This document shows positions 1 through 16,461 of a stretch of DNA of 64,000 nucleotides, in pieces (the first letter of the stretch is position 1; each line of letters begins with the position of its first letter). The notes beneath the pieces are model-generated. The model made no database searches, was not told the DNA's origin, and saw only the letters and a list, made by a program, of their open reading frames with translations. Location of the stretch: assembly GCA_020344315.1 (NCBI GenBank), contig CP070820.1, positions 109,605 through 173,604 of the forward strand, given 5' to 3'. Source of the DNA: Candidatus Bathyarchaeum sp. (lineage in GTDB: Archaea; Thermoproteota; Bathyarchaeia; Bathyarchaeales; Bathyarchaeaceae). Position numbers and translations under genes: made by a program.

Positions 1-2212
1 CTCTAAATTCTGTCACTGTGTCAAAAATTGAGTCAGGACCAGCTTGTTGTGCCGCGAAGTTGCTGTGGGACCCGACATCTGTTGAGTTGTCGACATCAAT
101 GATAGCGTTGTCTACATAATCCTCTATTATTTCGCCTTCCATATATTCTGTCAGTGTATCAACAATTAGGTCTGGACCATGTTTTTGTCCACGGAAGTAC
201 GATTGTGAACCCTTGTCATCGCTAAAATCTATGTTTGATATGTTGTTATCTACAAAATCGTAATCATAACCATCCATCGTAATCCATGGAGGATTTTCCA
301 CTATCACCCAGAGACCAACATCATCCACACTACGGTAGATGGGTTCACCCTCAAACGTTACTACTGCGCCATGCCAAATCAACTCTAAAGGATAAGTGAA
401 AGAGGCATCGTACTGCTCTACTGGATTTAACTCGATGCCCGAACCGAGTATATTTAGGGCTCCTGTCTTGTTGCCCGCAATAGAGTCGAAGATGTAGAGG
501 TTCTGGTTGTCGGTGTCCGTGAACATGAGTCCTGCTCCCGAGTCTCCTGACACGAATTGGCTCCAATGGTGTTCCCAATTTGTATCGTTGTAGAAGAGAC
601 CAGTGGAAGTGGAAGTTTCAGGGTAGCCTCCATCTGTTCCATCCTCTGTTAGTTGTGTTCCAGAGAGACTTGAGAGCTGGATGGCACTGAGATCAGAAAC
701 AGTTCTGCTCTGGGAAGAGTTCACAAAGATTGTTCTTGCTTCATACGTATAGTAAGTTGCATTTGCTGGGAAGGTTAAAACTACCTGCGCATAAAAGTCA
801 GGACTACCTGCAACTCCTCCACTATATTCAGGTTCCTGTTGAACTATATCTCGGACTACGCCGTTGTAGATTACATACGCCGGTTCAGCCCCATAGTTAG
901 GCTCCTCATTGTTGACGCGCAGGAAATCTGCCGTACAGCTGGTTGACCCCCCAACAACAGAAGAAACTACATCAAAGTTATACACGTCTAGGTTTGTTAG
1001 ACCATTGTTCAAAACACCATAGGATGGGTTGTATTCAGGGTCATCATTGAAGTATATGTTTTGCCAAGCATAAGATGTTTGGATTACTGTATCGCTCCCA
1101 TCCCACCACAATGTAGCCTTCTCGACATCGTCATTGACTAAAAACACTAACATATTATTATTGTTGAAGAGACTGGCGTTTCCAGCTAGACCCAAAGGAA
1201 CTCTGTAGTCCGATGCCCAATCCTCCACTTGAAAAGGTACCTCCCGGTCCACCCCATTTATTGTTTGATTAAGATGGAGAGCTTTGACCGGAAGAGGTGG
1301 AATAGGCCTCGCTTGAGGCAGTATTTGCAAGCTTTGACCAAGCCATAGCAAGGTACCATTTTGGAGTACTTCTATAACCATAGTGTCCGTAGTTAAAGAT
1401 TCGTAGATGTGCTTCAATCCCGTAGAGTCCCAATCAAAGTTATAAATGAACTGGGGAAATCCTGACTCAAGTGAGGCTTCAGAATAGAAAGCTTTCACCA
1501 GAAGGCCTCTTTGATTTTCAACTTGGACTGAATAAGCGTCTTGATTTACTCCCGGGGGGATGTCTATGATATAAGTTCCATCTGCAGAGATCACTGGATC
1601 ATTTTCTGGATTAACCAGCTCCCAAGTTGAGTCACCGTAGTTATACCTGTAAAACCAGAAGTTTTCTTTTCTTAATCCTAGTTCAGGTTTACTATTATCG
1701 CGTGTAACAATTATTCTGGCTTCATTTGAGTTTATTGGGTCTAGAATACTGACTTCCAATGCAGAAGATGTCTCATACTTCACTCCTTCTATTCCAAGAC
1801 CCGCCAAATCATAGGTTACTGAGATGTTCCCCATGCTGTAGCTTTGTGGCATATACCAGCGGGTAGAAACCTGACTCGCTGTAAAATCGAGGTCAAAGGA
1901 TGGGTTCCATTCCGGATGTGAACGAGCAATATTAACTAATCCGCTTGAAAGATAGCGGGTCGTGAGTCCCTGGGCATATGTTGAGTTTCCCGTGACTTGC
2001 AGGATTGAGCCGTAGTATCCAACAGTAAAGTCCAAAATTCTTTTGATGTCCGCGTTCATTTCTCCCATAGCCGTCAGGACTATGGGTGAGTCCTGCAGTG
2101 GAGCGTGGCGGATCATGCTGTAAGTGGATATGACAGCAGCTACTAGAATCACGGCTACCAGCAACGCCGCGATTATAGAGAACTGTCCCTTATTTGCTCT
2201 ACTTCTTTTCAA
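1..2212 (-). CDS. Giant prepilin-like surface protein. Only the N-terminal >730 codons are in the window; the gene runs off the left edge.
   Basis: Absent from the ORF track because it is open to position 1. I translated stretches near 2100, 1250, 700 and 1-300 in the frame set by TTG at 2212 and saw no stops. GGAGG lies 12 nt upstream of the TTG. N-terminus (M)KRSRANKGQFSIIAALLVAVILVAAVISTY is a short basic leader, then KG/Q, then about 20 hydrophobic residues, which is the archaeal class III (prepilin-type) signal peptide pattern. Function of the body is unknown. Confidence 0.6.
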   Translation of the reverse strand, partial: MKRSRANKGQFSIIAALLVAVILVAAVISTYSMIRHAPLQDSPIVLTAMGEMNADIKRILDFTVGYYGSILQVTGNSTYAQGLTTRYLSSGLVNIARSHPEWNPSFDLDFTASQVSTRWYMPQSYSMGNISVTYDLAGLGIEGVKYETSSALEVSILDPINSNEARIIVTRDNSKPELGLRKENFWFYRYNYGDSTWELVNPENDPVISADGTYIIDIPPGVNQDAYSVQVENQRGLLVKAFYSEASLESGFPQFIYNFDWDSTGLKHIYESLTTDTMVIEVLQNGTLLWLGQSLQILPQARPIPPLPVKALHLNQTINGVDREVPFQVEDWASDYRVPLGLAGNASLFNNNNMLVFLVNDDVEKATLWWDGSDTVIQTSYAWQNIYFNDDPEYNPSYGVLNNGLTNLDVYNFDVVSSVVGGSTSCTADFLRVNNEEPNYGAEPAYVIYNGVVRDIVQQEPEYSGGVAGSPDFYAQVVLTFPANATYYTYEARTIFVNSSQSRTVSDLSAIQLSSLSGTQLTEDGTDGGYPETSTSTGLFYNDTNWEHHWSQFVSGDSGAGLMFTDTDNQNLYIFDSIAGNKTGALNILGSGIELNPVEQYDASFTYPLELIWHGAVVTFEGEPIYRSVDDVGLWVIVENPPWITMDGYDYDFVDNNISNIDFSDDKGSQSYFRGQKHGPDLIVDTLTEYMEGEIIEDYVDNAIIDVDNSTDVGSHSNFAAQQAGPDSIFDTVTEFR

Positions 2213-2216
2213 GAAT

Positions 2217-3542
2217 TTAGGTCCCTCCTTGTTGACCAAGTTGGAGAGTGACAAGTCTTGATGTTCCGCTGGCTCCGAATTCACTTCTGTAGACTGTTGG
2301 ACGATAGTACATAAGGAGAGCGAGTGCAGCAACTCGTATGTCCGGAATCCTTGTCAGCCCTATTGCTGTGAGCACGCCTCCTCCAGTATGCTTGTACGTT
2401 GCAGCAGGAATGTAGTTCGGGTATGACGGCTGACGGATAAAAAGCTCTGTGGCAGTTAATTGGTAATCAGTTAAAATAGAGTCTGGAAGTGCACGCGTGG
2501 CTGTCTGGGTGATATCAGGGTAAATGCCATAATAGTTGAGGTTCTCAAGAGCTTCACTGTTAAACGTGACATCTCCGGGGCTTCCGGTGATACCTGTACC
2601 ACTGATGACGTATGGATCGCCGTCCAATCCTCTGAGAAAGGCGTTGAGTCCTGCTGGTCCAACTTGTATCATCCCATGAATACCATAACCATTGTGGTCA
2701 TCTGGGTCGGTAAAAACTTCGGTGTTAGATACATAATAGACAGGGTAGCCGACAATGCTGACCCAAGTCCAGTTATACTGCTGCGTTTTGCTACCGAGAG
2801 TATAGCAAAACTTTGCATATGATCCGCCTTCGTAGCCTTCATTTTGTTGTGAACCACCTTGGCAATAATCGGCTGGAATGGGAACAGCTTCCCCAAACGT
2901 GTTTACAACAACAGCATTTTGTATAGTCCCTTCAAGCGATGTGGAGTTCTCCAAGAGGAGCCTAAGCTGATATGTACTGTTTATGAGAATAGTACTGGTG
3001 AAGTACGGGGAAAGAAGGTCTTTGAAGTCCGAAGCAAGACTCTGACCAGTATAACCTGTGATCCACCAACCGTTAGCGTCGTTACAATTCAAGATGTAGA
3101 GGGTGATGTTTTGTCCTGTGCTCTCCCCCACTTTTTGCGGGTCCTCGGTGAAGGTGACGTTTGGGGATGTCACCATAAATGAAGCAGAGTCAGACTCGGC
3201 TCCGAAGCCAGCATCTGAGATTGAGTTCGCTAGTTGATAGGTTATGGCTCCTCCAGCGCTCGCTGAAATGTCATAAACGCTGAGGTTATAAACCACATTT
3301 GGTGGGAGAGATGCTGAGAGAGCCATTTTGAGGTCTCCCCAAGCAGGATCAGAAGAACCTTTGAAGACTGTCTCGGTTAATACACCTTTACCATCCAAGG
3401 TTTCGAGGGTGGATTGAGACAACTCTCGCAGGTTGGTTCCAAAAGATTGACGTGGCGAAGGCAAAACAGCAAACTGAGTTGCGATAATAAAGGCTCCCAG
3501 TATGATGATAATAACAAAGAGGACCTCAACAGTTCTCATCAA
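2217..3542 (-). CDS. Large prepilin-like extracellular protein (441 aa), function unknown
   Basis: ORF track. N-terminus MMRTVEVLFVIIIILGAFIIATQF has a 3-residue leader, an early acidic residue and a hydrophobic helix of about 20 residues. The body is S/T/N/G-rich with at least 6 N-x-S/T sequons. Its stop is 5 nt from the next gene start. No domain recognised in the body. Confidence 0.5.
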   Translation of the reverse strand: MMRTVEVLFVIIIILGAFIIATQFAVLPSPRQSFGTNLRELSQSTLETLDGKGVLTETVFKGSSDPAWGDLKMALSASLPPNVVYNLSVYDISASAGGAITYQLANSISDAGFGAESDSASFMVTSPNVTFTEDPQKVGESTGQNITLYILNCNDANGWWITGYTGQSLASDFKDLLSPYFTSTILINSTYQLRLLLENSTSLEGTIQNAVVVNTFGEAVPIPADYCQGGSQQNEGYEGGSYAKFCYTLGSKTQQYNWTWVSIVGYPVYYVSNTEVFTDPDDHNGYGIHGMIQVGPAGLNAFLRGLDGDPYVISGTGITGSPGDVTFNSEALENLNYYGIYPDITQTATRALPDSILTDYQLTATELFIRQPSYPNYIPAATYKHTGGGVLTAIGLTRIPDIRVAALALLMYYRPTVYRSEFGASGTSRLVTLQLGQQGGT

Positions 3543-3559
3543 CGCCCATCACCTCCCTT

Positions 3560-4717
3560 TCAGCCCCTCAATCTCCATGCAGACAACTTCACCAGATACG
3601 AAACCTCGTTAATCCTCACCTGCCTAAGTTCGGTTGCAACAAAACTGTAACCAGTCGAATCACCGCCAAAAACGGCTGTGACCCCGAGAGTGCCGATTCC
3701 CCAAGGCATAACTACAGAACCGATGCTCGCTCCCTGCTTATATGAAATCAATAGGATTCCTGTCTCGGATGCCGGAACTTTCGTTGTATTGTAAGTACCG
3801 TATTCTAGATTATCTGTGGAATTCTCTATCTGAACCTGCTGCAACTGAAATCCCTGATTCAGAATAAAAAAGGTGGCATTATAATAGACGGAATCAGCTG
3901 GGCTATTATTGGCGATTATGACTTTCCCATTCTCAAAATCTTGGACAAATGGAAGAATGAGCGCATCAGAACTGCTAGTGACATCACGAGAATAGTATCC
4001 AACACCATTAAGTCCACTGAGATGAACGTAGACCAATAAAGAATAGGCATCGTCAGAAGCATCTAAAGAAAACTTTATCGATGATGAACCGTTTTGTATA
4101 ATGCCTGAATGCGTTATTATCGAAGGAAACTCCCCGCCCTCAGGATCTAGATGAAAAAGATAGTAATTCAGGCTAGCATTCGTTAAAGGTAGTCCTGGTC
4201 CTCTTGTTTCAACTTTGAACTCTAAGGGATTCAAGGAGACCTCCGAGATGCTGACGCTCAGAGTTGGTGCAATATTGATTCCAAATCCATAGGTTCCATT
4301 GACGCCTAAAAGTTCCGCAGTTCTTGTGTAATTCACACAATCACCTACTGGAACAAGTAGATAACCTCCATAACCGAAACTGATGTTATTGTAGAAAGTT
4401 GTACCATATTGGACGAGTTGGCTATCCTGAGAAGTCCTTAGCCTCATTGGGGAATAGGTACTAAGGGAGTACCCGCTAGATTCAGGGTCTTGAAGGCCGA
4501 AACCTATTATGGCTGAGTTGGTCTGTGACCAATTTGCGGGATTTCCTGGAGATAGACATGCAGTATCTATGAGATCGACGGCTTTCATGGTGACCTGTCG
4601 GTTACGTTCATAAGCAACGGCAGATGCGAACATATTATTGAAGGTGACCATAGCTATCAGCATCGCCGTTATTAAAATCGTAACTGAAATCATGTGATCT
4701 ATGGTAGCACCCGGCAT
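3560..4717 (-). CDS. Large prepilin-like extracellular protein (385 aa), function unknown
   Basis: N-terminus MPGATIDHMISVTILITAMLIAMVTF has Gly at position 3, an acidic residue and a long hydrophobic helix. Its first ~10 residues parallel the neighbouring gene (MPNVTIEYVI). At least 10 N-x-S/T sequons by eye. Confidence 0.5.
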   Translation of the reverse strand: MPGATIDHMISVTILITAMLIAMVTFNNMFASAVAYERNRQVTMKAVDLIDTACLSPGNPANWSQTNSAIIGFGLQDPESSGYSLSTYSPMRLRTSQDSQLVQYGTTFYNNISFGYGGYLLVPVGDCVNYTRTAELLGVNGTYGFGINIAPTLSVSISEVSLNPLEFKVETRGPGLPLTNASLNYYLFHLDPEGGEFPSIITHSGIIQNGSSSIKFSLDASDDAYSLLVYVHLSGLNGVGYYSRDVTSSSDALILPFVQDFENGKVIIANNSPADSVYYNATFFILNQGFQLQQVQIENSTDNLEYGTYNTTKVPASETGILLISYKQGASIGSVVMPWGIGTLGVTAVFGGDSTGYSFVATELRQVRINEVSYLVKLSAWRLRG

Positions 4718-4721
4718 CTAA

Positions 4722-5198
4722 TCAGCCTCCAAAAGAAAAAACTATGGTGCTGTTAGAAAACTTCTGAAGTTCAAGTGAAGCGTTAGCAGAGTTACTCTGA
4801 AGAATGGGATTCTCGGTCCATATCACATTAGAGCCCATCACAGCTAACGCGGTAACCGTGGTTCCATCTTCCATCGTCAAGGTAAGGGTGAGAATTCTAG
4901 TGGAATTAGGGTCTGAGGGGCTACTCAGTGAGCCCATAGCTGTATACGGATAAGAATTAATGGTTGCCGGGATACGTAAGGCATGCGTTATAGTGCCAGC
5001 TAAGATTTCTTCCCGATTCACAGTTAGGTAAAGTTGTTGAACCGTACTCGCCAGATGGTCTGCAGCCTCCTGTAGCGCAACGTTTCTTTCAGATTCTTGC
5101 CAACTGGAGGTAATTGTATTCGCTACCAAAGGAAAAACTATCACTTGAGTAAAGAGCAAAGGAATCAGTATCACATACTCAATCGTTACATTCGGCAC
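4722..5198 (-). CDS. TadE-like pseudopilin candidate (158 aa)
   Basis: N-terminus MPNVTIEYVILIPLLFTQVIVFPLV resembles, from memory, the TadE-like N-terminal signature ([VI]-E-[FY]-[AV]-[LI]-[VI]-x-P-x-L-[LF]). Small secreted-type body. Sits inside the pilin gene run. Confidence 0.5.
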   Translation of the reverse strand: MPNVTIEYVILIPLLFTQVIVFPLVANTITSSWQESERNVALQEAADHLASTVQQLYLTVNREEILAGTITHALRIPATINSYPYTAMGSLSSPSDPNSTRILTLTLTMEDGTTVTALAVMGSNVIWTENPILQSNSANASLELQKFSNSTIVFSFGG

Positions 5199-5223
5199 CT
5201 ATGATAGTCTCCTCTCCTTATTT

Positions 5224-6093
5224 TCACCAAGTAATTCCAAATTCAACAGATACCTCGCTTAGGTAAAGTTCAAAAACTACATTGTCATATCCAGAAGAAG
5301 GAACGGGAATCTCTTCAGAGTCAAATGGAAAATTGAAAAAAGCGGAATCAAAATTCTCTGGTGAAGCTGCTCTAGGAAAACTAACAGAAACGTCGATGCT
5401 CGTGACGTTGCTCAGGGTGCGGGCTTCCACCGACGTTCCAGTTAAGGTGATAGATTGGGATAGTCTAGGGGCTTCTCCAGCTTCAAGAACCGGAAGGTAC
5501 ATCTTAACATAATATGTGCTGGTGGAAGCGTTAATCGAAGAGAAGAGGACCCTAATGGCTGGGGCTACAACTACCCGTATATAACTTCCATCATACATAG
5601 GCAACTTCTCGACGACAAACACTCGTGCGACTGGAGCAGAGGTACCCTGTAAAGTAAGAGATTCGTCCTCAGACGGAAAGACTCTTTCCCAGTAATCGTT
5701 GGCCACAGAATATTTTGATGTTGGGACTTTGAACATGAGTATTGCTGTCTCATTTGAAAATTCATTTGTCCCTTCATTGGTTTCGACGGTCACTACGTAA
5801 TTTAATACTGAGGGCTCTAGGACAGCATCCCCATACTGGCTTGCATAACGAATAGTCTCTGTACGCCCCACTGTCCAAGCTACATCATCTATTTGAAGCC
5901 CAGCTGTATGCATCAACTGTTTGGAAGAGTTGAACTCTCCCTCTGCAACCTGAGACCAGAGAAAATTGTTTGCGAAGACTAAGGCGACGCTAACTATGGC
6001 AATCATTGCACCTGTAATAACAACTGTTGAGATAACGGGGCTTACTCCGCCTTTACTTGACCGTTTCTTATGAACAGAGTTAATCATTGGCAA
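5224..6093 (-). CDS. Archaeal type IV pilin-like protein (289 aa) with class III signal peptide
   Basis: KKRSSKGG/VSPVISTVVITGAMIAIVSVALVF matches the archaeal pilin N-terminal pattern: basic leader, Gly, then [VA]SPVI[AS]T and a hydrophobic helix (Pilin_N/DUF1628-type). First gene after the platform protein. Confidence 0.7.
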   Translation of the reverse strand: MPMINSVHKKRSSKGGVSPVISTVVITGAMIAIVSVALVFANNFLWSQVAEGEFNSSKQLMHTAGLQIDDVAWTVGRTETIRYASQYGDAVLEPSVLNYVVTVETNEGTNEFSNETAILMFKVPTSKYSVANDYWERVFPSEDESLTLQGTSAPVARVFVVEKLPMYDGSYIRVVVAPAIRVLFSSINASTSTYYVKMYLPVLEAGEAPRLSQSITLTGTSVEARTLSNVTSIDVSVSFPRAASPENFDSAFFNFPFDSEEIPVPSSGYDNVVFELYLSEVSVEFGITW

Positions 6094-6112
6094 ACTTTCC
6101 TCCTGTTTTCCC

Positions 6113-7801
6113 CTAAATTATCATTGGAACAACTTTTGATGCAACGATAGCGAGCAGAACGAGCAAGGAGGAATGTTTTAAGCCAGCGGCCAAAGATTCT
6201 TCACTGATTTTTCCTGCCACCAGTCCAATCAGGTAACAGTGTGTGATTACTGAAACTGTGAAGATTAACGTAAGGAAATCTACGTCGACCGCGCCTACCC
6301 CTTGGCTAGTCCCCGCCATGGCAACTGTCTCAGTGGTGAAAATGAGAGTCATAAGAGTCGTTGCTACCAGCAATACCGCTGCAAAGTAGGGGATGAGTAT
6401 ATAGGGCCGAACGCTCATCTTCTTCTCTTTCTCCACTTCCTGAGTCATATTGTTGAATCTCGCGAGAGATTCAATCATGGATATGGTTCCACCCCCTACG
6501 TCCACAGCTTCTAAGAGGAGAAACATGACTATCTGGGACATCCAACTCCTAGTTTTCTTCACGAAATCCATGATTACATTTCGCAACGGAATCCCCCAAG
6601 CAATGTCAGACGACATCTTCTTCAATTCCTTAGAGAAAGCTCCGTAGTTCCGTTCTGAAAGATTCTCAATACACTTTTCTGGGGAAAGCCCTGTCTTTCT
6701 CGTTTCCGTCAGATCCCTGAGAAAGTTGGCTATCCCATGCTCGATGCTCGATTTTCTACTTGCGATCTTCTGGTGGACGAGGGCTGGAGGCACAGCTGAA
6801 ATTATCAAAGTGATGGCCACTGCAATTGGCAGGTCGACAAGATTTTGGGTAGGTATTTGTACCATACCAAAGAATCCTGTGAGCAGCAAGAGCACTAAAA
6901 CAGCCACACCTGAGGAGATGCCCCATACTTTGTAGGATCTATAATCGCTGAGGGGAGTTTTTGGTTGCATACCGTGGGCAAGATACAGGAAGACAACAGA
7001 AAGTAGAGGAGTGAAAACGTAGGTATACATGATCACTCCAGTACCCATGTCCATGCCTGAGCTGTATATTGACTCGACACTGAAGAGAATGTAGAAGCAG
7101 AGGGACATGAGAACCATTATAATGATAAAGGACTCCAGAAGCATTCCCAAACGCTCGGCGGCAGCCTTAACTCTCAAGGACCCCGTCTTGAAGATATCCT
7201 GCGCCTTTGTTTCGAGGAAGTGGATAACGTCACCACCTATAATAACTGTGGAAGCATAACCCGAAACGAAGTCTCTGAACATATCCAGCGGATGGTACTT
7301 TGCCGAGATCTCCAGTGCACTAAGGGGGTCAATCCCAAAGATTTCAACATCTCTGATTAGACTTCTAGCTTCTTTCCGCGTTGCAGGTAACAATTCAACA
7401 TCTGCAAGTCGCTTAAAGCTCATGTAAGGCGGTATACCTCCTGACGCCATAACAGTGATGTAGGTTGCTGCAAAAGGCATCTCCCTCTCCACGGCACCTT
7501 TCCGGTCGCTGGCCTTCGACATCGGGGCAATCATGAAGCCAATCATGATGAAGAGGGGTAGGGGCACCAAGAAGATCAGGAATATGATCCTCGTGAAATA
7601 TAGAAATACTAGTGCGATGACAGATACTGGTATAGTTAGCATAGCAATTAAAAACATCAGGGATATGTAGGTTTCAGGATAGATTTTGATTCCTGCTTTT
7701 GCCAAATGTTCCTTGAACTCGAAGACATTACTTAGGAACTTCGGAGCAACCCTTCCGAAAAGGCGAAAAGAAACCCCTTCAAGAGTTTTTAGCAGGGGCA
7801 C
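6113..7801 (-). CDS. Type IV filament platform membrane protein (FlaJ/TadC/PilC family, 562 aa)
   Basis: Polytopic membrane protein of the expected size. It overlaps the 3' end of the secretion ATPase gene by 23 nt. It shows alternating cytosolic helical regions and TM bundles, as in T2SS-F domain proteins. Assignment is by context and overall pattern. Confidence 0.7.
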   Translation of the reverse strand: MPLLKTLEGVSFRLFGRVAPKFLSNVFEFKEHLAKAGIKIYPETYISLMFLIAMLTIPVSVIALVFLYFTRIIFLIFLVPLPLFIMIGFMIAPMSKASDRKGAVEREMPFAATYITVMASGGIPPYMSFKRLADVELLPATRKEARSLIRDVEIFGIDPLSALEISAKYHPLDMFRDFVSGYASTVIIGGDVIHFLETKAQDIFKTGSLRVKAAAERLGMLLESFIIIMVLMSLCFYILFSVESIYSSGMDMGTGVIMYTYVFTPLLSVVFLYLAHGMQPKTPLSDYRSYKVWGISSGVAVLVLLLLTGFFGMVQIPTQNLVDLPIAVAITLIISAVPPALVHQKIASRKSSIEHGIANFLRDLTETRKTGLSPEKCIENLSERNYGAFSKELKKMSSDIAWGIPLRNVIMDFVKKTRSWMSQIVMFLLLEAVDVGGGTISMIESLARFNNMTQEVEKEKKMSVRPYILIPYFAAVLLVATTLMTLIFTTETVAMAGTSQGVGAVDVDFLTLIFTVSVITHCYLIGLVAGKISEESLAAGLKHSSLLVLLAIVASKVVPMII

Positions 7802-9389
7802 CAGCTAAAACCTCCCTCTCGTAGAAACTTTCAGGTTTGGCATTGTATTCCGTTATGACCCCTGCGACGTCTTTGTAGCTTCTAATGTTGCGTTCGCGCA
7901 TCCAGCGCAACACGTTTTCCCGACGTTTCATCTCTTCCATCAATTTTTGCCAGGAGAGACCTCTGCGAGTAGTTACGGAATTAAGCGCTATGCTGTTCTT
8001 GAGCAAGGAAATGTGGACGTCGTCAGTAGCGTTCCAGTTGAAAAGTTTTTTATAATCTTCGTAATCGGCAATTTCATCCACTGAAATAACTCGTCGGTAA
8101 GCCGTCATTTCTCCTGTCTTCGACTGCGGCAAGTGTACTCTTTGAATGGATACTACAATGTTCATGAGAGGCATGTATGCAGGTGCAATATCCATAGGTT
8201 TCTGGATTAAACGTTTGACAGCCGAATCGATGGAATCTGCGTGCATAGTAGCCATGCCGCCGTGACCCGTTGCCAAGGCTTGGAACAGGGTATATGCTTC
8301 GCTTCCTCGAATCTCGCCGACCACTATCAGATCTGGACGGTGCCTCATGGATGTCTTGACTAAATCAAAGAGGGATACTTCTCCGGTGAGGTTTTCTCCT
8401 AGACCGTAACTTCTTCTCGCAATCAGGGACACCCAATTTTCGTGAGGCAGATTAAGCTCTGCAGTTTCCTCAATTGTTATTATCTTGCTGCCGGGCTTGA
8501 TTAAACATGCTACTGCATTGAGGAACGTTGTTTTTCCTGATGCTGTTCCGCCTAGCACCATTAGGGAGGCTCTGTTCTCCAGACAGGTCCAGAAATAGGC
8601 TGCCATCTCTTCGGATAGGGTTCCTAGGTTAATTAGATCGATAATTGAGTAGGGGTCGTCTCGGAACTTTCTTATTGTGAAGGCTGTCCCGAAGGGTGTT
8701 ACTTCCCTTCTGTAGCAGACAGCAAGTCTGTGCTTTCCTGGTAAAGAGGCGTCAACTATGGGGAAGGCTGAGCTTACGTGCTTTCCAGCCATGTGAACTA
8801 GCTTTACCACAGAGTCGTCTAGTTCTTGGTCGGCGTGAAAGACCATGTTTGTTTCAAGGTTCTCATATCTTCTGTGCCAGATGTAAACGGGTTTCTCGAC
8901 GCCGTCACACGAGATGTCTTCTATGTTTGGGTCTCGCATCAGCGCGTCGATCCGGCCGAAACCGACAAGGTTTCGTTGGGCATGATAAAGGATTTTAGAC
9001 CACGAAACGTCTGGTAGCCAACCTAAACTTATTCGGTATTTGCCAACAATCTTTTCAGCTTCAGTTACAAAAAATTGTCGAGGGTCCTCGATTTCTTCTT
9101 GTGGATTAGCTATCTCAGCGAGGAGAATTTCTAATATTCTGTCATACACGCTCTGTTCGAGGGTGTCTAGCCTGAGTTCGTCTAGAATGTATTTGTGTTC
9201 GCCGGTTACTGGGTTTTGAGCAATGGCTGCGTGGGCGAAGGGTTCGTAGAGAGGATATTTTTCGACGACTTTGTATCCTTTTGGCAGGGGTTTTGGTGGG
9301 GGTGGTGGTAGGGTTTTAATTTTCTTTCTCTTGAAGATACCGCCTAACTTTGCTCGAAATCCCTTTTTGGATAGTTTATCCTTCGGCAT
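7779..9389 (-). CDS. Type II/IV secretion-system ATPase (FlaI/TadA/PilB-like, 536 aa)
   Basis: Walker A GGTASGKTTFLNA, Asp/Walker B region PDLIVVGEIRG, His box ATGHGGMATMHA. Unusual basic/proline-rich N-terminus (KKGFRAKLGGIFKRKKIKTLPPPPPKPLPKG). Confidence 0.85.
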   Translation of the reverse strand: MPKDKLSKKGFRAKLGGIFKRKKIKTLPPPPPKPLPKGYKVVEKYPLYEPFAHAAIAQNPVTGEHKYILDELRLDTLEQSVYDRILEILLAEIANPQEEIEDPRQFFVTEAEKIVGKYRISLGWLPDVSWSKILYHAQRNLVGFGRIDALMRDPNIEDISCDGVEKPVYIWHRRYENLETNMVFHADQELDDSVVKLVHMAGKHVSSAFPIVDASLPGKHRLAVCYRREVTPFGTAFTIRKFRDDPYSIIDLINLGTLSEEMAAYFWTCLENRASLMVLGGTASGKTTFLNAVACLIKPGSKIITIEETAELNLPHENWVSLIARRSYGLGENLTGEVSLFDLVKTSMRHRPDLIVVGEIRGSEAYTLFQALATGHGGMATMHADSIDSAVKRLIQKPMDIAPAYMPLMNIVVSIQRVHLPQSKTGEMTAYRRVISVDEIADYEDYKKLFNWNATDDVHISLLKNSIALNSVTTRRGLSWQKLMEEMKRRENVLRWMRERNIRSYKDVAGVITEYNAKPESFYEREVLAGAPAKNS

Positions 9390-9676: not shown

Positions 9677-10249
9677 TCAGAGACGGGATTTACAGGTTAT
9701 CTCTTTTATTCTCAGATCAAAGAAAGCATGCGTGTTGCTTGGCTTCAAAACTACGGCGGTGTCTGCTCCACCCCCAGTGCCGCCGATGGCAATGGCTTCC
9801 TCATCTGTTTTGATTAGACCCGCGTCGGCTGCCATGCAAGCTACCTCGCAAGCAACTTTTACTCCCTGACCGAAAAGGCGAAGAACATTTGAGACGATTC
9901 CGTCAACTTGGAGGGTCCCAAACTTTTTGTTGACTGCTCTGCCCAGGGTGCCAAAGGCATGTGCAGTTGTTAGGATTTTCGCGCCGTTTCTTTCAATGAT
10001 GCTACGATTCTTGGGAAGAAATTCTTGAAAATTAGGCTTCCTGAATCCGGTAACATGTGTTACCACTACAACATTGTAGCCCTTGAAGACTTCGGAGGCC
10101 TTAATGCCGGTCTCACCTGTTGTCGAAGCCACGACGATGTTTTGGATACCAAGCTCTTCAGCTCGCTCTTTTGCCAACTTGAAGGTTTCTTCAGTGTTTT
10201 CGGGTCCAGATTTCTCGAAATATACTGTCTTACAAACAATTTTTGCCAT
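9677..10249 (-). CDS. Stand-alone pyruvate-kinase C-terminal (alpha/beta) domain-like protein
   Basis: Sequence pattern YFEKSGPENTEETFKLAKERAEELGI..IVVASTTGETG...GQGVKVACEVACMAADAGLI...AIGGTGGGADTAVVLKP is typical of the archaeal PK_C-only family. Start taken at MAKIV; the ORF track starts 15 nt further upstream at 10264. Confidence 0.7.
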   Translation of the reverse strand: MAKIVCKTVYFEKSGPENTEETFKLAKERAEELGIQNIVVASTTGETGIKASEVFKGYNVVVVTHVTGFRKPNFQEFLPKNRSIIERNGAKILTTAHAFGTLGRAVNKKFGTLQVDGIVSNVLRLFGQGVKVACEVACMAADAGLIKTDEEAIAIGGTGGGADTAVVLKPSNTHAFFDLRIKEITCKSRL

Positions 10250-10356
10250 ACCAAGCAGCTCCAATTAACTCTTAATGTTTCAGGGTGCCATGTAATTGAT
10301 TGAACGGGCTTATATTTGTTATAAAAGTTGTTTCTATACATTCAATGTGTTCTGCT

Positions 10357-10655: not shown

Positions 10656-11723
10656 TTGGTTTACGGCGAAAAAAGCGATGTCTTCAGCATTCAGACAATA
10701 AATCTAACTAAGAGATTTGCCAAAAAGAAGCATAGAGGCTTTTTCAGTTTTCTGCGAAGAGAACAATCAAAGAAAAATAATGCAGTTACAGTGGCCTTGG
10801 ACAAAGTCAACATCAAAATCCGTCCCAGAGAACTCTTCGGACTCCTTGGACCAAACGGGTCTGGAAAAACTACAATGATTAAATGCTTGTCCACAATCTT
10901 GATTCCAGACGAAGGCACGGCTATCGTAAACGGCTTCGACATTCGCAAAGAAACATCCATGGTCCGAGCAAGTTTAGGAATGGTCGTGGGCGGGGAGAGA
11001 ACATTATACTGGAAGCTAACAGCCAGAGACAACCTCATGTACTTCTCTTCGTTATACAAGATGCATAAAAGACATGCAAAGGACAGAATCGAAGAACTCC
11101 TAGAAACTTTGCAGCTCTCTGAGCGAGCTGACGAGAGGCTAGAGGACTACAGCACAGGAATGAGACAGAAAGTCGCCATAGCACGAGCCCTACTGCATGA
11201 TCCACCGATCTTGCTCTTGGATGAGCCTACCTTAGGTTTAGACCCAGGTTTTGCGAGGCAGATCCGGAACCAAATAAGAGACCTTTCAAAGAAGCAGGGA
11301 AAAACAGTTCTTCTAACCACCCATTATATGGACGAAGCTGATCAACTGTGCGATCGAGTAGCCTTCATTAATAACGGTGAAATCGTCGCAGTTGACACCC
11401 CAAACAGGCTCAAGGCCATGGTGAAAGAGACCGAGCTTGTGGAAGTGAGTGTTTACCGTCCACCAGCAGACATCGAAAAACAACTCCGTTCCCTGTTGCC
11501 CGAGGCGGAAGTTGTCAAGCTTATTCCCGGCGATGAGGCTGAGGGAGTTCCTTCGAGAATCAAGATAATTGGGGGAACCACAGAAGAGCACGTGGGAAAA
11601 ATCATTGATGCACTCAGACAAAAGAACATTCGTATTGGCAGTTTAAACGTTGGTGTACCTACGCTTGAAGACGTTTTCATAAAATTAACTGGCGCAAAAC
11701 TAACTGAGGGGGGAATGCAATAG
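10656..11723 (+). CDS. ABC transporter ATP-binding protein (ABC-2/drug-exporter type)
   Basis: Walker A GPNGSGKTT, signature YSTGMRQK, Walker B ILLLDEPT. Followed by two ABC-2 permease genes. Confidence 0.9.
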   Translation: MVYGEKSDVFSIQTINLTKRFAKKKHRGFFSFLRREQSKKNNAVTVALDKVNIKIRPRELFGLLGPNGSGKTTMIKCLSTILIPDEGTAIVNGFDIRKETSMVRASLGMVVGGERTLYWKLTARDNLMYFSSLYKMHKRHAKDRIEELLETLQLSERADERLEDYSTGMRQKVAIARALLHDPPILLLDEPTLGLDPGFARQIRNQIRDLSKKQGKTVLLTTHYMDEADQLCDRVAFINNGEIVAVDTPNRLKAMVKETELVEVSVYRPPADIEKQLRSLLPEAEVVKLIPGDEAEGVPSRIKIIGGTTEEHVGKIIDALRQKNIRIGSLNVGVPTLEDVFIKLTGAKLTEGGMQ

Positions 11724-11726
11724 ATA

Positions 11727-12578
11727 TTGGAAACCGTATATCAGCAGTCTCCGTTGCGTAGCAATCTTTCTGTTGTCTGGAATGAACTGGTTAAAAACAT
11801 CAAGTTCCTTCTAGCCTATCCCGTCATCATCGTTTTCTGGGCTATATTTCCCATTTTCTGGTTTATTCCCTTCATCCTTCAGGGACAAGCCTTCGTAGGC
11901 GGTTTAACGAGCGAAAGTTTTGCTCAGGCAACTGGAACCTCAGAGTTCATTCCCTTTATTGTGATAGGCGCAGTCCTCAACAGTTACGTAGGTACTCTGC
12001 TTAACGGCATGGGAGACAATATAAGACGCGAAGCACTGCAAGGAACACTCGACTACGTGCTTGCAGCTCCCTGTAACAAAGCTTCTGTGCTTATCGGAAA
12101 AGCCCTGAGTGAAAGCCTATCCAGCACAATCTTTGCAATAAGCCAACTCGCCATCTCTACGCTCCTCTTCGGATTAGGAATAAGCTTAGGCGTGATGCTT
12201 CCGGTATTTTTCATAATCATCTTGCTCATACTGGGATTGTACGGCTTATCCCTCATCTTTGCTGCCTTGTCTCTTATGTACAAGCAATCCCATGGTTTCG
12301 GGCAGACTGTGGGATATGTTTTTTACGTTTTCTCTCCCGTGCGCTATCCTATTGAGAGCTTGCCCTTTTGGGCTCAGATCTTCGGTAAGCTTCTTCCTCT
12401 CACATACGCCATCATCATTGTGAGGAGCCTCATGCTCTTAGGAGCTGACCTATCAGCCCTCTACGTGGAGGTGCTGGTGCTTCTAATCATTGATGTTGTC
12501 TTGATACTTGCTGGCTTCTATCTGTTTAATTGGATGGAAGAGAAAACTAAGAAATCTGGAACCATAAGCCACCATTAG
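11727..12578 (+). CDS. ABC-2 type transporter permease
   Basis: Six-TM-type hydrophobic protein immediately after the ATPase gene (TTG start 3 nt after its stop). Confidence 0.75.
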   Translation: METVYQQSPLRSNLSVVWNELVKNIKFLLAYPVIIVFWAIFPIFWFIPFILQGQAFVGGLTSESFAQATGTSEFIPFIVIGAVLNSYVGTLLNGMGDNIRREALQGTLDYVLAAPCNKASVLIGKALSESLSSTIFAISQLAISTLLFGLGISLGVMLPVFFIIILLILGLYGLSLIFAALSLMYKQSHGFGQTVGYVFYVFSPVRYPIESLPFWAQIFGKLLPLTYAIIIVRSLMLLGADLSALYVEVLVLLIIDVVLILAGFYLFNWMEEKTKKSGTISHH

Positions 12579-12589
12579 GAGAAAAAAGA

Positions 12590-13483
12590 TTGGATAACAA
12601 CAATGAAGATTACCGGTTGCGGGAAGTCAAATGTCCGACAGGATTCAACTGGAGCAACCTAAAGGCTGAATTAAGGGCAGTCTGGGCAGCCAACATTAAA
12701 GATTGGAAAATCGAGTTTGCATACCCGGAGAGTTTCTTCCGCCAACTGATTTCTCCCCTCGTCTTCCTCCTGCCTTTCCTCCTATATGGCCTTGTTTTAG
12801 TTGGAGGGAGATACAGCGATGATCTGGCACAGCTTGTTGGAACAGGAGATATCGTTACTTTCATTTTCACCGGTTACATGCTGATGGGATTCATAGGAAC
12901 AGCAGTTTGGGCAATGGGATTCAGCATAAGGATGGAAAGATGGTTTGGAACCTTGGAGGCAATATATGTGACACCTACCAGCCGCTTGGGTCAAGTCTTG
13001 GGCATGGCTTTGCACAGCACAATTCATCAGAGCATAGGTACCCTCATCCAGTTCATCGTCATATACCTCACCTTCGGTTTAGCATTGAAGATAGAGGGAA
13101 TCTTGCCTGCTTTGGGGATTTTTGCCCTGATGATGATTGCTCTCTACGGCTTTGGCATAGTGGTCTCCGCTGTAGGCTTACTCTTAAAGGAGGGCTGGAT
13201 GGTTTCTGACGGTCTCTACAGTATTATGATGATTCTCTCCCCTGTGGCTTATCCCCTGACTGTACTTCCCACCGTGGCTCAACAGATAAGCACCGCATTT
13301 CCAACAGCGCCAGCACTGATTGGAATGCGAAGTTTCCTGATGGAGGGCTATCAGCCAGAAGTGATTATCAACGTATTTTTGCATCTCATAGTGCTGGGTG
13401 CAGTCTGGATTCTCTTCGGCATACTTGTGTTTCGTTTAGTAGACGTTTATGTGCGAAAAAGGGGTATGCTCAAAAAATTCTAA
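12590..13483 (+). CDS. ABC-2 type transporter permease (second subunit)
   Basis: Hydrophobic protein paralogous in layout to the preceding permease. Same operon. Confidence 0.75.
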   Translation: MDNNNEDYRLREVKCPTGFNWSNLKAELRAVWAANIKDWKIEFAYPESFFRQLISPLVFLLPFLLYGLVLVGGRYSDDLAQLVGTGDIVTFIFTGYMLMGFIGTAVWAMGFSIRMERWFGTLEAIYVTPTSRLGQVLGMALHSTIHQSIGTLIQFIVIYLTFGLALKIEGILPALGIFALMMIALYGFGIVVSAVGLLLKEGWMVSDGLYSIMMILSPVAYPLTVLPTVAQQISTAFPTAPALIGMRSFLMEGYQPEVIINVFLHLIVLGAVWILFGILVFRLVDVYVRKRGMLKKF

Positions 13484-13510
13484 CTTCATCACTCAAATTG
13501 AGGAGCCAAT

Positions 13511-14095
13511 ATGATCTACGTTTACCATCAAAAGATGAAGGATGTTTGGTATGGCGCCGCCGTGAAGGAAGACAAAGTTCTTGCCACCAACTTTTCATTT
13601 GAAGAAGAGGATTTGGGGCGCCTTCTGAGAAGGTTACCGTCTGATGTTTCGTTTCAGATTGTAGAGGAACCTAATCAGCTGCTAACTGATGTTCTGGGAG
13701 CTTTGGAGGAGATTTTCAGCGGAGAGGACCGGGGCTCATGTGGATTCAAGTTAGCCATGGATCATCTTTCCAGCTACACAAGAAAGGTGCTTGATTGCAC
13801 GCGTCTGGTTCCTGTTGGATACGTGACAACGTATGGTGCCGTAGCCAAGGTTGCGGGGGGAATCGCGAGGTCTGTGGGACGTGTTGAGGCATCAAATCCT
13901 TTTCCTTTATTGGTTCCCTGTCACAGGGTTGTGCGTTCTGATTTGAGTATAGGCGGCTACGGATACGGAATGCAGGTTAAGTTGGGGCTTCTTAGGAGGG
14001 AGGAGAGAGGCTACGAAGAACCGAGGACGCCAAAGGTGGCGGGTGGAGAACTGTTACTGTTTCCAGCAGAGCGGGTGAAACAAAATGTTATATGA
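13511..14095 (+). CDS. ogt: Methylated-DNA--protein-cysteine methyltransferase family protein
   Basis: Active-site motif VPCHRVV, preceded by the YGAVA...NPFPLLVPCHRV pattern typical of the MGMT DNA-binding domain. Confidence 0.8.
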   Translation: MIYVYHQKMKDVWYGAAVKEDKVLATNFSFEEEDLGRLLRRLPSDVSFQIVEEPNQLLTDVLGALEEIFSGEDRGSCGFKLAMDHLSSYTRKVLDCTRLVPVGYVTTYGAVAKVAGGIARSVGRVEASNPFPLLVPCHRVVRSDLSIGGYGYGMQVKLGLLRREERGYEEPRTPKVAGGELLLFPAERVKQNVI

Positions 14096-14131
14096 TTGCT
14101 CGTTTTAACGTGCTGCTGAAGGTGATTTGAT

Positions 14132-14287
14132 TTGAAAGAATATGATTGTGTGCAAGTTGGTCATCACAAAAGAGTTGGTGAAGTGATTGAGAAATATCAA
14201 ATGAAGGGATGGCGTCTCCACACCTATCAGGCTCAGGGGTCTCCAACCATCGTTAACCACTATTTGCTGTTTGAACGGGACCGATAA
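14132..14287 (+). CDS. Small conserved-looking hypothetical protein (51 aa), not in the ORF track
   Basis: Hand translation: (M)KEYDCVQVGHHKRVGEVIEKYQMKGWRLHTYQAQGSPTIVNHYLLFERDR. TTG start is preceded by GAAGGTGAT, which matches the archaeal anti-SD complement, at 7-nt spacing. The minus-strand 62-aa ORF listed here looks spurious. Confidence 0.5.
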   Translation: MKEYDCVQVGHHKRVGEVIEKYQMKGWRLHTYQAQGSPTIVNHYLLFERDR

Positions 14288-14407
14288 TTCCAACTAGAAT
14301 TGTCAAGCAACCGCAATAACATGCTGGGAACTGAATTGCCCCTCAATTAGCGTTAAGTTAAAGTTCATATATACAATCATTGTTAGATTCTTCGAAGGGG
14401 AGAGAAG

Positions 14408-14935
14408 ATGGTGAAGCGCGGGGTCTTTGTGGGAAGATTTCAGCCCTTTCATAAAGGGCACCTAGGAGCCATAAAAAAAATCGCGGATAAGGTCGATGAA
14501 CTAGTCATAATTGTTGGTAGTTCCCAGTATAGCCACAGGCTCGATAATCCTTTTACCGCTGGCGAGCGCATCACCATGATTCGAAAGGCACTGGAGGAAG
14601 AGGGAATTCAGTTGTCGAGAGTCTGGATTATACCGGTGCCGGATGTTCATCAGCATATGCTCTGGGTCTACCAGATTGTGGGTTACTGTCCAAAGTTTGA
14701 TGTGGTCTATACTAACGAGCCGTTGACTTGTAGGCTCTTTATGGAAGCTGGTTTTAGAGTTGAGCAGGTGCCTCCGATAAGGCGGGAGGTGTATTTGGCT
14801 ACGGAGATTCGGAAACGTATGTTAGCTGGAGGAGAATGGGAGGAACTTGTCCCAAGCAGCGTTGCCAGTTACATAAAAGAGATTGAGGGTGATGTGCGGC
14901 TTCGGGACCTAAACAAAACTGATACGGTGGACTAG
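14408..14935 (+). CDS. nadM: Nicotinamide-nucleotide adenylyltransferase (archaeal NMNAT)
   Basis: N-terminal GRFQPFHKGH nucleotidyltransferase motif and overall archaeal NMNAT pattern, 175 aa. Confidence 0.9.
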   Translation: MVKRGVFVGRFQPFHKGHLGAIKKIADKVDELVIIVGSSQYSHRLDNPFTAGERITMIRKALEEEGIQLSRVWIIPVPDVHQHMLWVYQIVGYCPKFDVVYTNEPLTCRLFMEAGFRVEQVPPIRREVYLATEIRKRMLAGGEWEELVPSSVASYIKEIEGDVRLRDLNKTDTVD

Positions 14936-15750
14936 ATTACTCCAGTTGTGACTTTTTCCTTTTTTGAGATGAACGAGTTATAGATGTATCTTGCTGCTAG
15001 AGAAGTTAGCCAGCCGCTGACCACTAAGACAGTAGCGGGGAAACCGTTGGTCAAGGGGACATAGTTTAGTAGAACTGTCTGAAGCAGCAGGTAGACTATG
15101 GTCATCAGGATTGTGGAGTTTAGTCCAAATTTTTTTCCGTATTTTCTTGTGTTTTGGATGCTGAGTAGTCCAAAGAGGAAGATGTCGCCTAATCCGAGAT
15201 AGGTTGTCCCCATTGTTGGGAATGTTGGTAGTTTGATGAATGCAGGTATTCCTAGTTTTTGTGCTGTTTCAAAGGCTCCTTCCATGTGTCCTGTAATTAG
15301 AACTTGAATGATGTCCATGATAGTCACTAGAGCAGCAAAGGCAACAGTTGTTTTCCACGTGAATAGAACTCCCATGTAAACTGCAATGGCGATGCCGAAG
15401 AGTATGGCGAAAAGATTGAAGGTGTAGATGTTCCAGAAATAGAAGAACGATAAAATGAATAGAACAGCCGGCACTGCTGCAAGATACCATTTTGACACAA
15501 TCAGATAGGTGAACAGGAAGAGAATTGCTGTGTAAGCGAAGAGGAAGAGACCCAGCAGAGCATGTTGGGGGATAGCTATGATTACGGTTACCATTGTGCC
15601 TATAGCTGCTACCAACAATATGGCGTGTTTTGGTCGGAGTTCTTTTCCGCCGACTAGGTAGTTAACCTTCTTGTCTAGTCTAGAGTAGAGAAAGATTGCA
15701 ATCATTGCTATCAGAAAGAGAACTGATGGAAGGAAAACATCAACTATCAT
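14932..15750 (-). CDS. Presenilin/signal-peptide-peptidase-like intramembrane aspartyl protease candidate
   Basis: Polytopic membrane protein. An Asp in a TM segment (TIMDIIQV) is followed about 40 aa later by LGLGDIFLFG (GxGD motif). A PAL-like GFPATV follows about 50 aa after that. Confidence 0.55.
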   Translation of the reverse strand: MIVDVFLPSVLFLIAMIAIFLYSRLDKKVNYLVGGKELRPKHAILLVAAIGTMVTVIIAIPQHALLGLFLFAYTAILFLFTYLIVSKWYLAAVPAVLFILSFFYFWNIYTFNLFAILFGIAIAVYMGVLFTWKTTVAFAALVTIMDIIQVLITGHMEGAFETAQKLGIPAFIKLPTFPTMGTTYLGLGDIFLFGLLSIQNTRKYGKKFGLNSTILMTIVYLLLQTVLLNYVPLTNGFPATVLVVSGWLTSLAARYIYNSFISKKEKVTTGVI

Positions 15751-15862
15751 GCCAGCAGATATAGAAACCCCTAAAGATTTACCTATCGGTCAACCAGAAA
15801 CAAAAGACACACCAAGTATGCATATATACGGCGGGGTGTTTGCTTTTGAGGATGATTCATAA

Positions 15863-16450: not shown

Positions 16451-16461
16451 GGGGCTGAAAT

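Follow-up and report, generated by a model that had tools for sequence, protein, structure and literature searches.

A conserved Bathyarchaeia locus encoding a candidate adhesive type IV pilus system with five pilin-like accessory subunits

The left end of a 64-kb window of DNA from Candidatus Bathyarchaeum sp. (the window is the whole stretch of 64,000 nucleotides that was analysed) carries, on the minus strand between positions 1 and 9389, a locus of seven co-directional and tightly packed genes: an ATPase, a membrane platform protein and five pilin-like proteins, here called P3 to P7. Our favoured interpretation, to which we give a probability of roughly 0.55, is that these genes specify an adhesive type IV pilus system in which P3-P7 are a minor-pilin set that carries adhesin modules and forms the priming or tip (or else the base) complex of the filament. 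An adhesion or tip-complex role had been proposed in a preliminary description of the same DNA, and it is the best supported of the readings considered here. Comparison with related genomes indicates that the complete system comprises nine genes, of which seven are seen here, and that it is conserved across the Bathyarchaeia.

An open reading frame (ORF) check reproduced all seven genes with the sizes, coordinates and N-termini given in the preliminary description. All are on the minus strand, and the spacers between neighbors, going from the ATPase to P7, are -23, 19, 25, 4, 17 and 4 nt. The ATPase (7779..9389, 536 aa) is of the PilB/GspE/FlaI (VirB11 superfamily) type and its gene is overlapped by 23 nt by that of the platform protein (6113..7801, 562 aa), a polytopic protein of the FlaJ/TadC/PilC type that is encoded by one fused gene and has nine hydrophobic segments. 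Then come P3 (5224..6093, 289 aa), with a class III-type leader (…SSKGG/VSPVISTVV…, where the slash marks the presumed cleavage site); P4 (4722..5198, 158 aa), which is nearly leaderless (MPN-VTIEYVILIP…); P5 (3560..4717, 385 aa), with a 3-residue leader (MPG-ATIDHMISV…); and P6 (2217..3542, 441 aa), a leaderless, modular pilin-like protein (M(M)RTVEVLFVIII…) with an inserted alpha/beta domain. The last gene, P7 (1..2212), runs off the left edge, so that the window holds only the N-terminal 737 aa of a giant modular pilin- or adhesin-like protein whose leader is canonical (MKRSRANKG/QFSIIAALLV…).

The first two proteins are those expected of a type IV filament (TFF) superfamily machine, which bears out the preliminary description on this point. 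The ATPase matches Pfam T2SSE at 125.7 bits (cut-off 24.9, E=2.2e-36) and the platform protein matches T2SSF in two stretches at 78.8 bits (cut-off 25.2). What kind of filament does this motor serve? Within NCBIfam the ATPase comes closest to the FlaI equivalog (364.7 bits, cut-off 550; E=8e-109), ahead of BasE (242.5 against 1000) and TadA (176.5 against 373). Among Protein Data Bank (PDB) entries it scores highest with GspE2 of Archaeoglobus fulgidus (2oap, 335 bits), followed by FlaI (4ii7, 245 bits) and CpaF (134 bits). For the platform protein, the NCBIfam matches are UpsF, BasF (115.3 against 1300) and ArlJ (84.7 against 550), all of them below cut-off. Judged by these scores the motor is of the FlaI/GspE2 type and not of the Tad type, with every equivalog score falling short of its cut-off. 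The prominence of FlaI could be taken to point to a divergent archaellum, as could the fact that one P6 homolog is labelled FlaG/FlaF by JGI. However, the FlaI and ArlJ scores do not place the motor in the archaellum families, no archaellin and no FlaH, FlaX or FlaCDE homolog was found in the locus or in its relatives, and B. tardum, a cultured organism that has an orthologous locus, is non-motile (PMC10477458). The archaellum reading is effectively refuted by these results.

ATPase relatives were collected by scanning one genome per species, which gave 569 stretches of DNA, and the best 80 of these 569 come almost entirely from Bathyarchaeia. Over the best 80 loci the ATPase is 70-94% identical, and the platform protein is 59-92% identical across the class. 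Used as tblastn queries, the seven proteins recovered the seven-gene order in other Bathyarchaeia, in at least 47 complete loci and a further 10 partial ones, which excludes a chance arrangement. P3-P7 are less alike in these loci of conserved order, falling to 30-55% identity. In the closest relative (L001/L081), whose ATPase is 94% identical and whose P7 is 1448 aa long, P7 is followed by three further genes in convergent orientation. One, directly after P7, encodes a 263-aa class III signal peptidase (Peptidase_A24, 53.2 bits; Arc_PepC_II, 81.9 bits). Another encodes a small pilin of 145 aa (MMKNILKTKRG/ISPILATLLLIVIAVAAVIVTYAWV, with KRG/ISPILATLLLIVIAVAA around the cleavage motif), which scores 29.6 bits with TIGR02537 (cut-off 20) and aligns weakly over its full length with UpsA. 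The third encodes a 179-aa protein that matches no family. Peptidase homologs adjoin the cluster in 35 of the fetched loci and small-pilin homologs do so in 33 (tblastn).

Neither a peptidase nor a small-pilin homolog was found by tblastn in the 64-kb window, in agreement with the preliminary description, which had noted that no prepilin peptidase is present. In a metagenome-assembled genome of Candidatus Bathyarchaeum sp., the proteins JSW14_00630, JSW14_00635 and JSW14_00625 match P6, P5 and P7, respectively, at 100% identity, and the last of these records is annotated as 'partial' at 817 aa; accordingly, we take the source contig to end inside P7, some 240 nt beyond the left edge of the window. 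The gene to the left of position 1 can thus be followed up to residue 817, but its remainder is not in that assembly. Since a peptidase and a canonical pilin come directly after P7 in the relatives, the lack of a peptidase gene in the window appears to be an edge effect. The occurrence of a separate candidate major pilin in the relatives also means that P3-P7 are better seen as minor or accessory subunits, the 145-aa canonical pilin being the likely major subunit.

The third gene beyond P7 deserves separate mention. A conserved protein of 179-194 aa (…RTTIILDEEEREYID…) is encoded beside the small pilin and the peptidase at 17380-17919 (minus strand) in L081 and at 20225-20809 (minus strand) in L020, and so is present in both of the locus types that these represent. 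It has no Pfam or NCBIfam match, its N-terminus is possibly ribbon-helix-helix-like, and we regard it as a candidate for regulating the system.

P3-P7 all contain a single hydrophobic segment, in every case at the N-terminus. Shine-Dalgarno-like motifs (GGAGG variants) lie 6-11 nt ahead of the starts of P4, P5, P6 and P7. The GTG start of P4 is preceded by AGGAGAGGAG, the ATG start of P5 by GGAGG, and the TTG/ATG start of P6 by GGGAGGTGA at a distance of 6-9 nt; P7 starts at a TTG at position 2212 with GGAGGG upstream, in agreement with the NCBI record. The good spacing of these motifs indicates that the short N-termini of P4 (MPN), P5 (MPG) and P6 (M or MM) are real and not start-codon artefacts. 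The preliminary description had ascribed a very short leader to all five proteins; this is correct for P4-P6, where it is 2-3 residues, but not for P3 (about 16 residues) or P7 (9 residues).

The N-terminal sequences are strongly conserved, each in its own way. In P3 the motif [KR][GA]/[VIL]SP[AV]IS is kept (35 orthologs), and P7 begins [KR]G/QFS, with K8 present in 65, G9 in 71 and Q10 in 72 of 73 homologs. Only these two have the K/R-G leader motif; both fit a relaxed FlaFind-like pattern, and they look like class III signal proteins. P4 begins MP[HN]VTIEY, with E7, I10, P13, Q18 and P23 invariant in 37 of 37 orthologs and Y8 present in 35 of them. For P5 the N-terminus is M[AT]G[AS]TIDH (G3 in 117, D7 in 118 and H8 in all of 119 homologs), and for P6 it is MMRT[VI]E, where R3, T4 and E6 are each found in 119 of 120 homologs. 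The earlier view that all five are prepilin-like thus goes too far: all five are pilin-like in overall architecture, but P4-P6 are best described as pilin-like proteins that are essentially leaderless and have a near-invariant acidic residue at position 6 or 7. In bacterial pilins the functional acidic residue is Glu5, and the Asp or Glu at position 6-7 of P4-P6 may act in the same way.

Three of the five proteins, P5, P6 and P7, are unusually large for pilins. In the case of P6 and P7, this can be traced with the help of sister locus types. Behind a nearly identical ATPase and platform pair, different Bathyarchaeia have three alternative subunit sets. A second type, found in 9 loci (among them L015, L019, L020, L022, L044, L056 and L067), has the same five slots as the window but smaller proteins in two of them, P6' being 136-155 aa and P7' 240-415 aa (238 aa in the P7' that was aligned). 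A third type, found in 7 loci (among them L017, L018, L045, L047 and L061), encodes pilin-like proteins in repeated pairs, one member of about 170 aa and the other of about 340 aa. In the loci named, the subunit set lies at about 13200-17600. This distribution suggests a cassette-like exchange of pilin modules behind a conserved motor. Residues 2-136 of P6 align with the entire 136-aa P6' (30% identity, E=3e-19), and residues 9-185 of P7 align with the 238-aa P7' (E=7e-10). The large size of P6 and P7 is therefore due to the grafting of domains onto a pilin-size module, and both have the make-up of modular pilins, that is, a pilin-size N-terminal module plus a grafted globular domain. A pilin fold of the N-terminal module itself is presumed, and not read from a match to a solved pilin.

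The P6' proteins also bear on the missing leader of P6. They have a conserved …[KRSE]GQ/MRV[IV]E leader, which overlaps the end of the preceding gene (L020 15806-15860; L015 6681; L019 6793; L022 15870; L044 15738; L056 15769; L067 14929). The presumed mature N-terminus of P6', QMRVIE, lines up with MMRTVE, the unprocessed start of P6. P6 thus has the appearance of a pilin whose leader has been lost and which the cell produces already 'processed'.

AlphaFold2 models were examined for P6 (120 sequences) and for residues 1-646 of P7 (73 sequences). The P6 model (predicted local distance difference test [pLDDT] 74.6, predicted template modelling score 0.62) has a helix at 2-24, a small alpha/beta part at 38-135, a domain of about 270 residues with alternating beta and alpha elements at 147-415, where the motifs of highest conservation lie, and a strand at 428-437. 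From its position and from the homology to P6', this final strand probably belongs to the small N-terminal part. A Foldseek search of the PDB with the P6 model gave nothing at E<=0.001. The best match, CTP synthase (E=0.026, template modelling [TM] score 0.27), is too weak to make a GATase/flavodoxin-like fold more than a guess. The P7 model (pLDDT 69.7) opens with a helix at residues 6-35, followed by a pair of long helices (42-98), a beta domain predicted with confidence (104-260) and more beta-rich domains up to residue 620. It gave five PDB matches at E<=1e-3 (about 3e-4), all to the beta-supersandwich of GH38 mannosidases and a PL26 lyase; weaker matches (E 1e-3 to 3e-2) were to galactose mutarotase, cellobiose phosphorylase and the periplasmic domain of YidC. 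The TM scores are low, about 0.2. The beta-supersandwich core of P7 is a hint of carbohydrate binding at the level of fold, and not evidence of homology.

P7 varies among its orthologs, which range from 630 to 1448 aa, the closest relatives having 1360-1448 aa. A short form of about 640-670 aa consists of the core alone. In a form of about 800 aa, which includes that of B. tardum, the core is interrupted near residues 610-725 by an F5/8 type C (discoidin) domain (43-50 bits, cut-off 28.2). Forms of about 940-1450 aa consist of the core plus C-terminal extensions, with InlB-type B-repeats in one homolog and, in the 1448-aa protein of L001 (19100-21512), a module of about 95 aa that occurs three times (LDLEVQWTG…W.ID..L). 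The C-terminal part of the P7 studied here (window 1-275; residues 646-817 of the database record) contains tandem motifs of about 45 aa (D.S.D.G[ST]HS.F..Q..GPD…DT.TE). Neither these motifs nor the 95-aa modules match a Pfam or NCBIfam family; the repeats may explain why the assembly breaks inside the gene.

P5 gives a similar picture. A P5 profile run against 1.84 billion representative sequences detected 267 proteins, including proteins of Vulcanisaeta (V. distributa, V. souniana) and of a Thermocladium metagenome-assembled genome, which are annotated as hypothetical. Two giants of 1639 and 2446 aa have the first 157 or so residues of P5 followed by DUF2341, propeller repeats and Laminin_G_3, and one form has full-length P5 plus InlB B-repeats. 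According to the available text of Makarova 2016, DUF2341 occurs in PilY-type pilus-tip adhesins (PMC4858521). We count the fusion of the P5 N-terminal module to DUF2341, Laminin_G_3 and InlB B-repeats in favor of an adhesive function, together with the F5/8 type C domain of P7 orthologs and the carbohydrate-enzyme-like core of P7.

The five families are otherwise isolated. P3-P7 have no Pfam or NCBIfam match, the only NCBIfam signal being one of P7 to TIGR04205 (E=0.26), and profiles built from the orthologs of P3, P5, P6 and P7 found nothing among all PDB sequences at E<=0.2. Close characterized homologs of the large proteins, which would have spoken for another role, were thus not detected in Pfam, NCBIfam or the PDB sequences, and the earlier statement that no domain can be recognized in the large bodies is right as far as these databases go; what it missed is the F5/8 type C domain of the P7 orthologs and the beta-supersandwich of the P7 core. 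P6 has more than 2100 homologs, which are named hypothetical. An origin of the five families by duplication was considered and dropped, as all-against-all hhalign comparisons revealed no paralogy (the best pair was the P4 and P5 N-termini, E=0.0035, probability 9%). A link to the haloarchaeal DUF72xx families stayed below threshold. The window proteins do not match the Pfam families DUF7289, DUF7266, DUF7288 or DUF7261; in the sister type, five of seven P3' proteins match DUF7289 (best 22.6 bits against a threshold of 27, E=9e-5, over the N-terminal 92 positions only) and three of seven P4' proteins match DUF7266 (best E=0.0063), in both cases below threshold. No paper that mentions these DUF72xx families was found.

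The preliminary description had also remarked on the many sequons of the large proteins as a sign of glycosylated domains. P3-P7 do have 1.4-2.6 sequons per 100 aa, compared with about 0.36 for the ATPase and platform protein, but the excess over that expected from composition is significant only for P5 (10 observed, 4.4 expected; 13 of 2000 shuffles). Individual sequons are nevertheless conserved: N111 and N280 of P5, N86 and N257 of P6, and N76, N285 and N315 of P7 are kept as sequons in at least 90% of orthologs, and N345 of P7 in 84%. These conserved sequons are compatible with extracellular, N-glycosylated domains in P5, P6 and P7.

How might such a system work? In an adhesive pilus, the ATPase and the platform protein would form a membrane motor that grasps pilin-type subunits by the N-terminal helix, extracts them from the membrane and builds a helix-bundle core from them. 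The small pilin would be the bulk filament subunit and the A24 peptidase its processing enzyme, the genes for both lying beyond the contig end in the present case. P3-P7, as five non-paralogous, single-copy minor or accessory subunits, would come together through their N-terminal helices as a complex for priming or at the tip. Among them, P4-P6 would be made without a cleavable leader, or with only MxG, and their primary N-termini would resemble that of a processed pilin. P7, and possibly P5 and P6, would display grafted extracellular domains that bind carbohydrate-rich or particulate substrates: the beta-supersandwich and variable lectin-type modules in P7, and the inserted alpha/beta domain in P6. 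There is precedent for this arrangement, since archaeal type IV pilus loci with some five minor pilins and large adhesin-like pilins are described in the available text of two surveys (PMC4858521; bioRxiv 10.64898/2026.04.22.720090).

Several observations weigh against an adhesive pilus. All of P3-P7 fail the strict FlaFind pattern, so that the class III signals expected from the preliminary description are seen in P3 and P7 with the relaxed pattern only. None of the five matches Pilin_N (PF07790), TIGR02537 or Arch_flagellin at E<=1 in the Pfam and NCBIfam scans, and none of 35 P3 orthologs matches Pilin_N at E<=0.1. Cleavage of P4-P6 is unsupported: these three lack the K/R-G motif, and a Gly that could occupy position -1 is present in P5 alone. 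The P6 and P7 models are of moderate confidence (pLDDT 70-75), with low pLDDT in the N-terminal helices. The pilin and the peptidase are assigned to the system from the loci of relatives, the source contig ending inside P7. In the B. tardum locus (L012, ATPase 85% identical) the small pilin and peptidase do not adjoin the cluster; the genes that follow it are presumably, from their sequences, those for UppP, eIF-1A and Alba. Finally, electron microscopy of cultured B. tardum showed no pili or other appendages on cells that have an S-layer and an outer sheath (PMC10477458).

The N-terminal observations could mean that P4-P6, and perhaps all five proteins, are ordinary type II signal-anchor glycoproteins that are inserted by Sec/YidC and neither extracted nor polymerized by the motor, their co-transcription with it reflecting a shared surface role. 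The absence of a leader or K/R-G motif in P4-P6, the failure of all five in curated pilin models and strict FlaFind, and the lack of mutual homology apart from the weak P4-P5 alignment would all fit. Nevertheless, the near-invariant acidic residue at position 6-7 and the strongly conserved motifs around it are not what one expects of a generic membrane anchor, P6' of the sister type has a conserved GQ leader ahead of the same MRVIE sequence, and in P3 and P7 the conserved K/R-G motifs are followed by at least 20 hydrophobic residues. There is also the strict linkage to ATPase, platform, peptidase and pilin genes in dozens of genomes, and the reuse of the P5 N-terminal module as a handle for DUF2341 and LamG adhesin domains. 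The acidic residues, the P6' leader and the genomic linkage make simple anchors quite improbable, just as the failed archaellum tests count against an archaellum.

The B. tardum observations raise another alternative, namely that the locus specifies a pseudopilus- or bindosome-like complex in which a short stalk of P3-P7, with or without the small pilin, lies within the S-layer or outer sheath. Such a complex would stay within the bounds of the cell envelope and keep the large glycosylated domains exposed, where they would capture substrate or help to organize the envelope, without forming a long filament. It would account for an organism that has an orthologous locus yet no appendages (PMC10477458) and whose small pilin and peptidase do not adjoin that locus. 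The motor is also unusually conserved for an accessory system, at the identities given above, which fits a constitutive envelope role; five single-copy, non-paralogous subunits parallel the fixed stoichiometry of type II secretion pseudopilins; and BasE, BasF and UpsF are among the better NCBIfam matches. The BasE and BasF scores are nevertheless far below their cut-offs. Furthermore, neither a class III-signal substrate-binding protein nor a linked transporter for uptake of that type was identified, the neighboring ABC genes being of the ABC-2 exporter type. The canonical pilin adjoins the locus in most relatives, which indicates that a filament can be made, and the absence of pili in one culture condition is weak evidence. 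On balance we consider a short complex somewhat unlikely, but it is the main rival of the adhesive pilus and has to be taken seriously. A more specific version is less probable still: in place of a hair-like pilus, the motor would build a surface complex of fixed stoichiometry from five unrelated pilin-like subunits. Three 'born processed' subunits that bypass the peptidase would join two giant modular pilins, which would display an alpha/beta domain not seen before and exchangeable lectin modules, and the whole would fasten the cell, or its sheath, to polymeric organic matter.

Among the known systems closest to the adhesive pilus proposed here are, by description, the TACK 'clade 4' or subsystem 4A loci. 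As far as the available text of the two surveys goes, these have an ATPase gene followed by a platform gene with accessory and pilin genes downstream, and they encode several untraceable proposed minor pilins and large, signal-peptide-bearing adhesin-like proteins (PMC4858521; bioRxiv 10.64898/2026.04.22.720090). The available text of Sivabalasarma and Albers 2026 records subsystem 4A in some Bathyarchaeota and also lists Bathyarchaeota among Aap-like systems, without detail (bioRxiv 10.64898/2026.04.22.720090). The minimal form of subsystem 4A given there differs in having two platform genes, and the pilin families named for it are arCOG11238 and arCOG06117; the likeness is one of description. 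In the accessible portions of Makarova 2016 and of Sivabalasarma and Albers 2026 the five families, the leaderless P4-P6 and the nested P6 domain are not described.

Another similar arrangement is the pil-2 locus of Halobacterium salinarum, likewise a seven-gene unit, with pilB, pilC and five ORFs of which only three are FlaFind-positive (Losensky 2015, PMC4292770). Its 2+5 layout and its mixture of canonical and non-canonical pilin-like proteins are those of the present locus. Homology to pil-2 is unproven, however, the only signals being the sub-threshold N-terminal matches of P3' and P4' to DUF7289 and DUF7266; we found no report of giant modular subunits in pil-2.

With the Sulfolobus bindosome (BasABC/BasEF) and Ups pilus, the locus shares a FlaI/FlaJ-type motor, class III signals on large extracellular proteins, possibly a short surface structure and, in its relatives, a small pilin with a weak alignment to UpsA. 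Unlike these systems, it has no sugar-binding proteins, UpsX or BasABC homologs, and P3-P7 and their neighbors show no match to a substrate-binding-protein family; with BasE, BasF and UpsF scores so far below cut-off, it does not belong with the bindosomes.

The preliminary description had called the locus Tad/Epd-like. It does share with Methanococcus Epd and bacterial Tad membership of the type IV filament superfamily, with several minor pilins that are essential for piliation in those systems, and a dedicated peptidase. We also take the xTIEY N-terminus of P4 to resemble the G/xxxxEY motif of Flp/TadE. The label is nevertheless imprecise: the ATPase resembles GspE2 and FlaI more closely than CpaF/TadA, there is one fused platform gene of 562 aa in place of TadB plus TadC, and the candidate 145-aa major pilin of the relatives has a globular domain, no Epd-type pilin lacking such a domain being found in the window or in the relatives' loci.

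Bacterial minor-pilin tips offer a functional parallel. Examples are GspH-I-J-K of type II secretion and FimU-PilVWXE with PilY1 of the type IVa pilus; such sets consist of four or five co-encoded, low-abundance pilins, one of them enlarged, with a tip adhesin, leaders that are all cleaved and an acidic residue in most subunits. 'Modular pilins' are known too, for instance PilB and PilC of Streptococcus sanguinis. The shared traits are co-encoded distinct subunits, grafted modules and an acidic residue near the mature N-terminus. There is no sequence homology or detected structural homology to these bacterial proteins, and the present locus differs in that the adhesin-like protein itself has a pilin-type N-terminus and three subunits are leaderless.

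Other features of the window were also noted. Between the pilus ATPase gene and a divergent ABC transporter there is a stand-alone gene for a 195-aa protein that consists of a pyruvate kinase C-terminal (PK_C) domain only (9677-10264, minus strand); in the closest relative (L001/L081) no ORF of at least 100 aa is found at this place. Upstream of the pilus locus, at 10656-13483 (plus strand), genes for an ABC ATPase and two ABC-2 permeases are followed by an O6-methylguanine methyltransferase-like gene. The same neighbors occur in L081, and L012 has ORFs of equal size at the same positions. Scans of the window for tRNAs and Rfam families were empty. Strict FlaFind picks out a single ORF of the window, which lies elsewhere, at 36726-38051 (minus strand), and encodes a 441-aa right-handed beta-helix protein (Beta_helix, NosD-like; …SFSRA/LLIIMLVGG); its motif is 29 residues in and may simply be part of a Sec signal peptide. 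A glycogen-type cluster at 52585-59023 (minus strand), with a carbohydrate phosphorylase that has an N-terminal YHS domain and a GDE_N/GDE_C debranching enzyme, is unrelated to the pilus locus.

Bathyarchaeia are among the most abundant microbes of anoxic sediments, and their cell surface is almost uncharacterized. The locus described here is the most conserved candidate for a surface machine that we found across this class. Its five subunit families have thousands of metagenomic homologs that are annotated as hypothetical and have no Pfam, NCBIfam or PDB coverage, and they can serve as seeds for new family models. The general pattern of an ATPase and a platform protein followed by untraceable minor pilins and large adhesin-like pilins is already on record in the available text of Makarova 2016 (PMC4858521). 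From the published text at hand, there appears to be no earlier description of the five families, of acid-bearing N-termini that lack a leader, of the domain nested in P6 or of conservation over the whole class. These features raise the question of whether leaderless pilin-like proteins with an N-terminal acidic residue can join a filament without the help of a prepilin peptidase. They also raise that of the role of the nested P6 domain, and of whether the interchangeable lectin-type modules of P7 may set the substrate or particle specificity of these sediment archaea.

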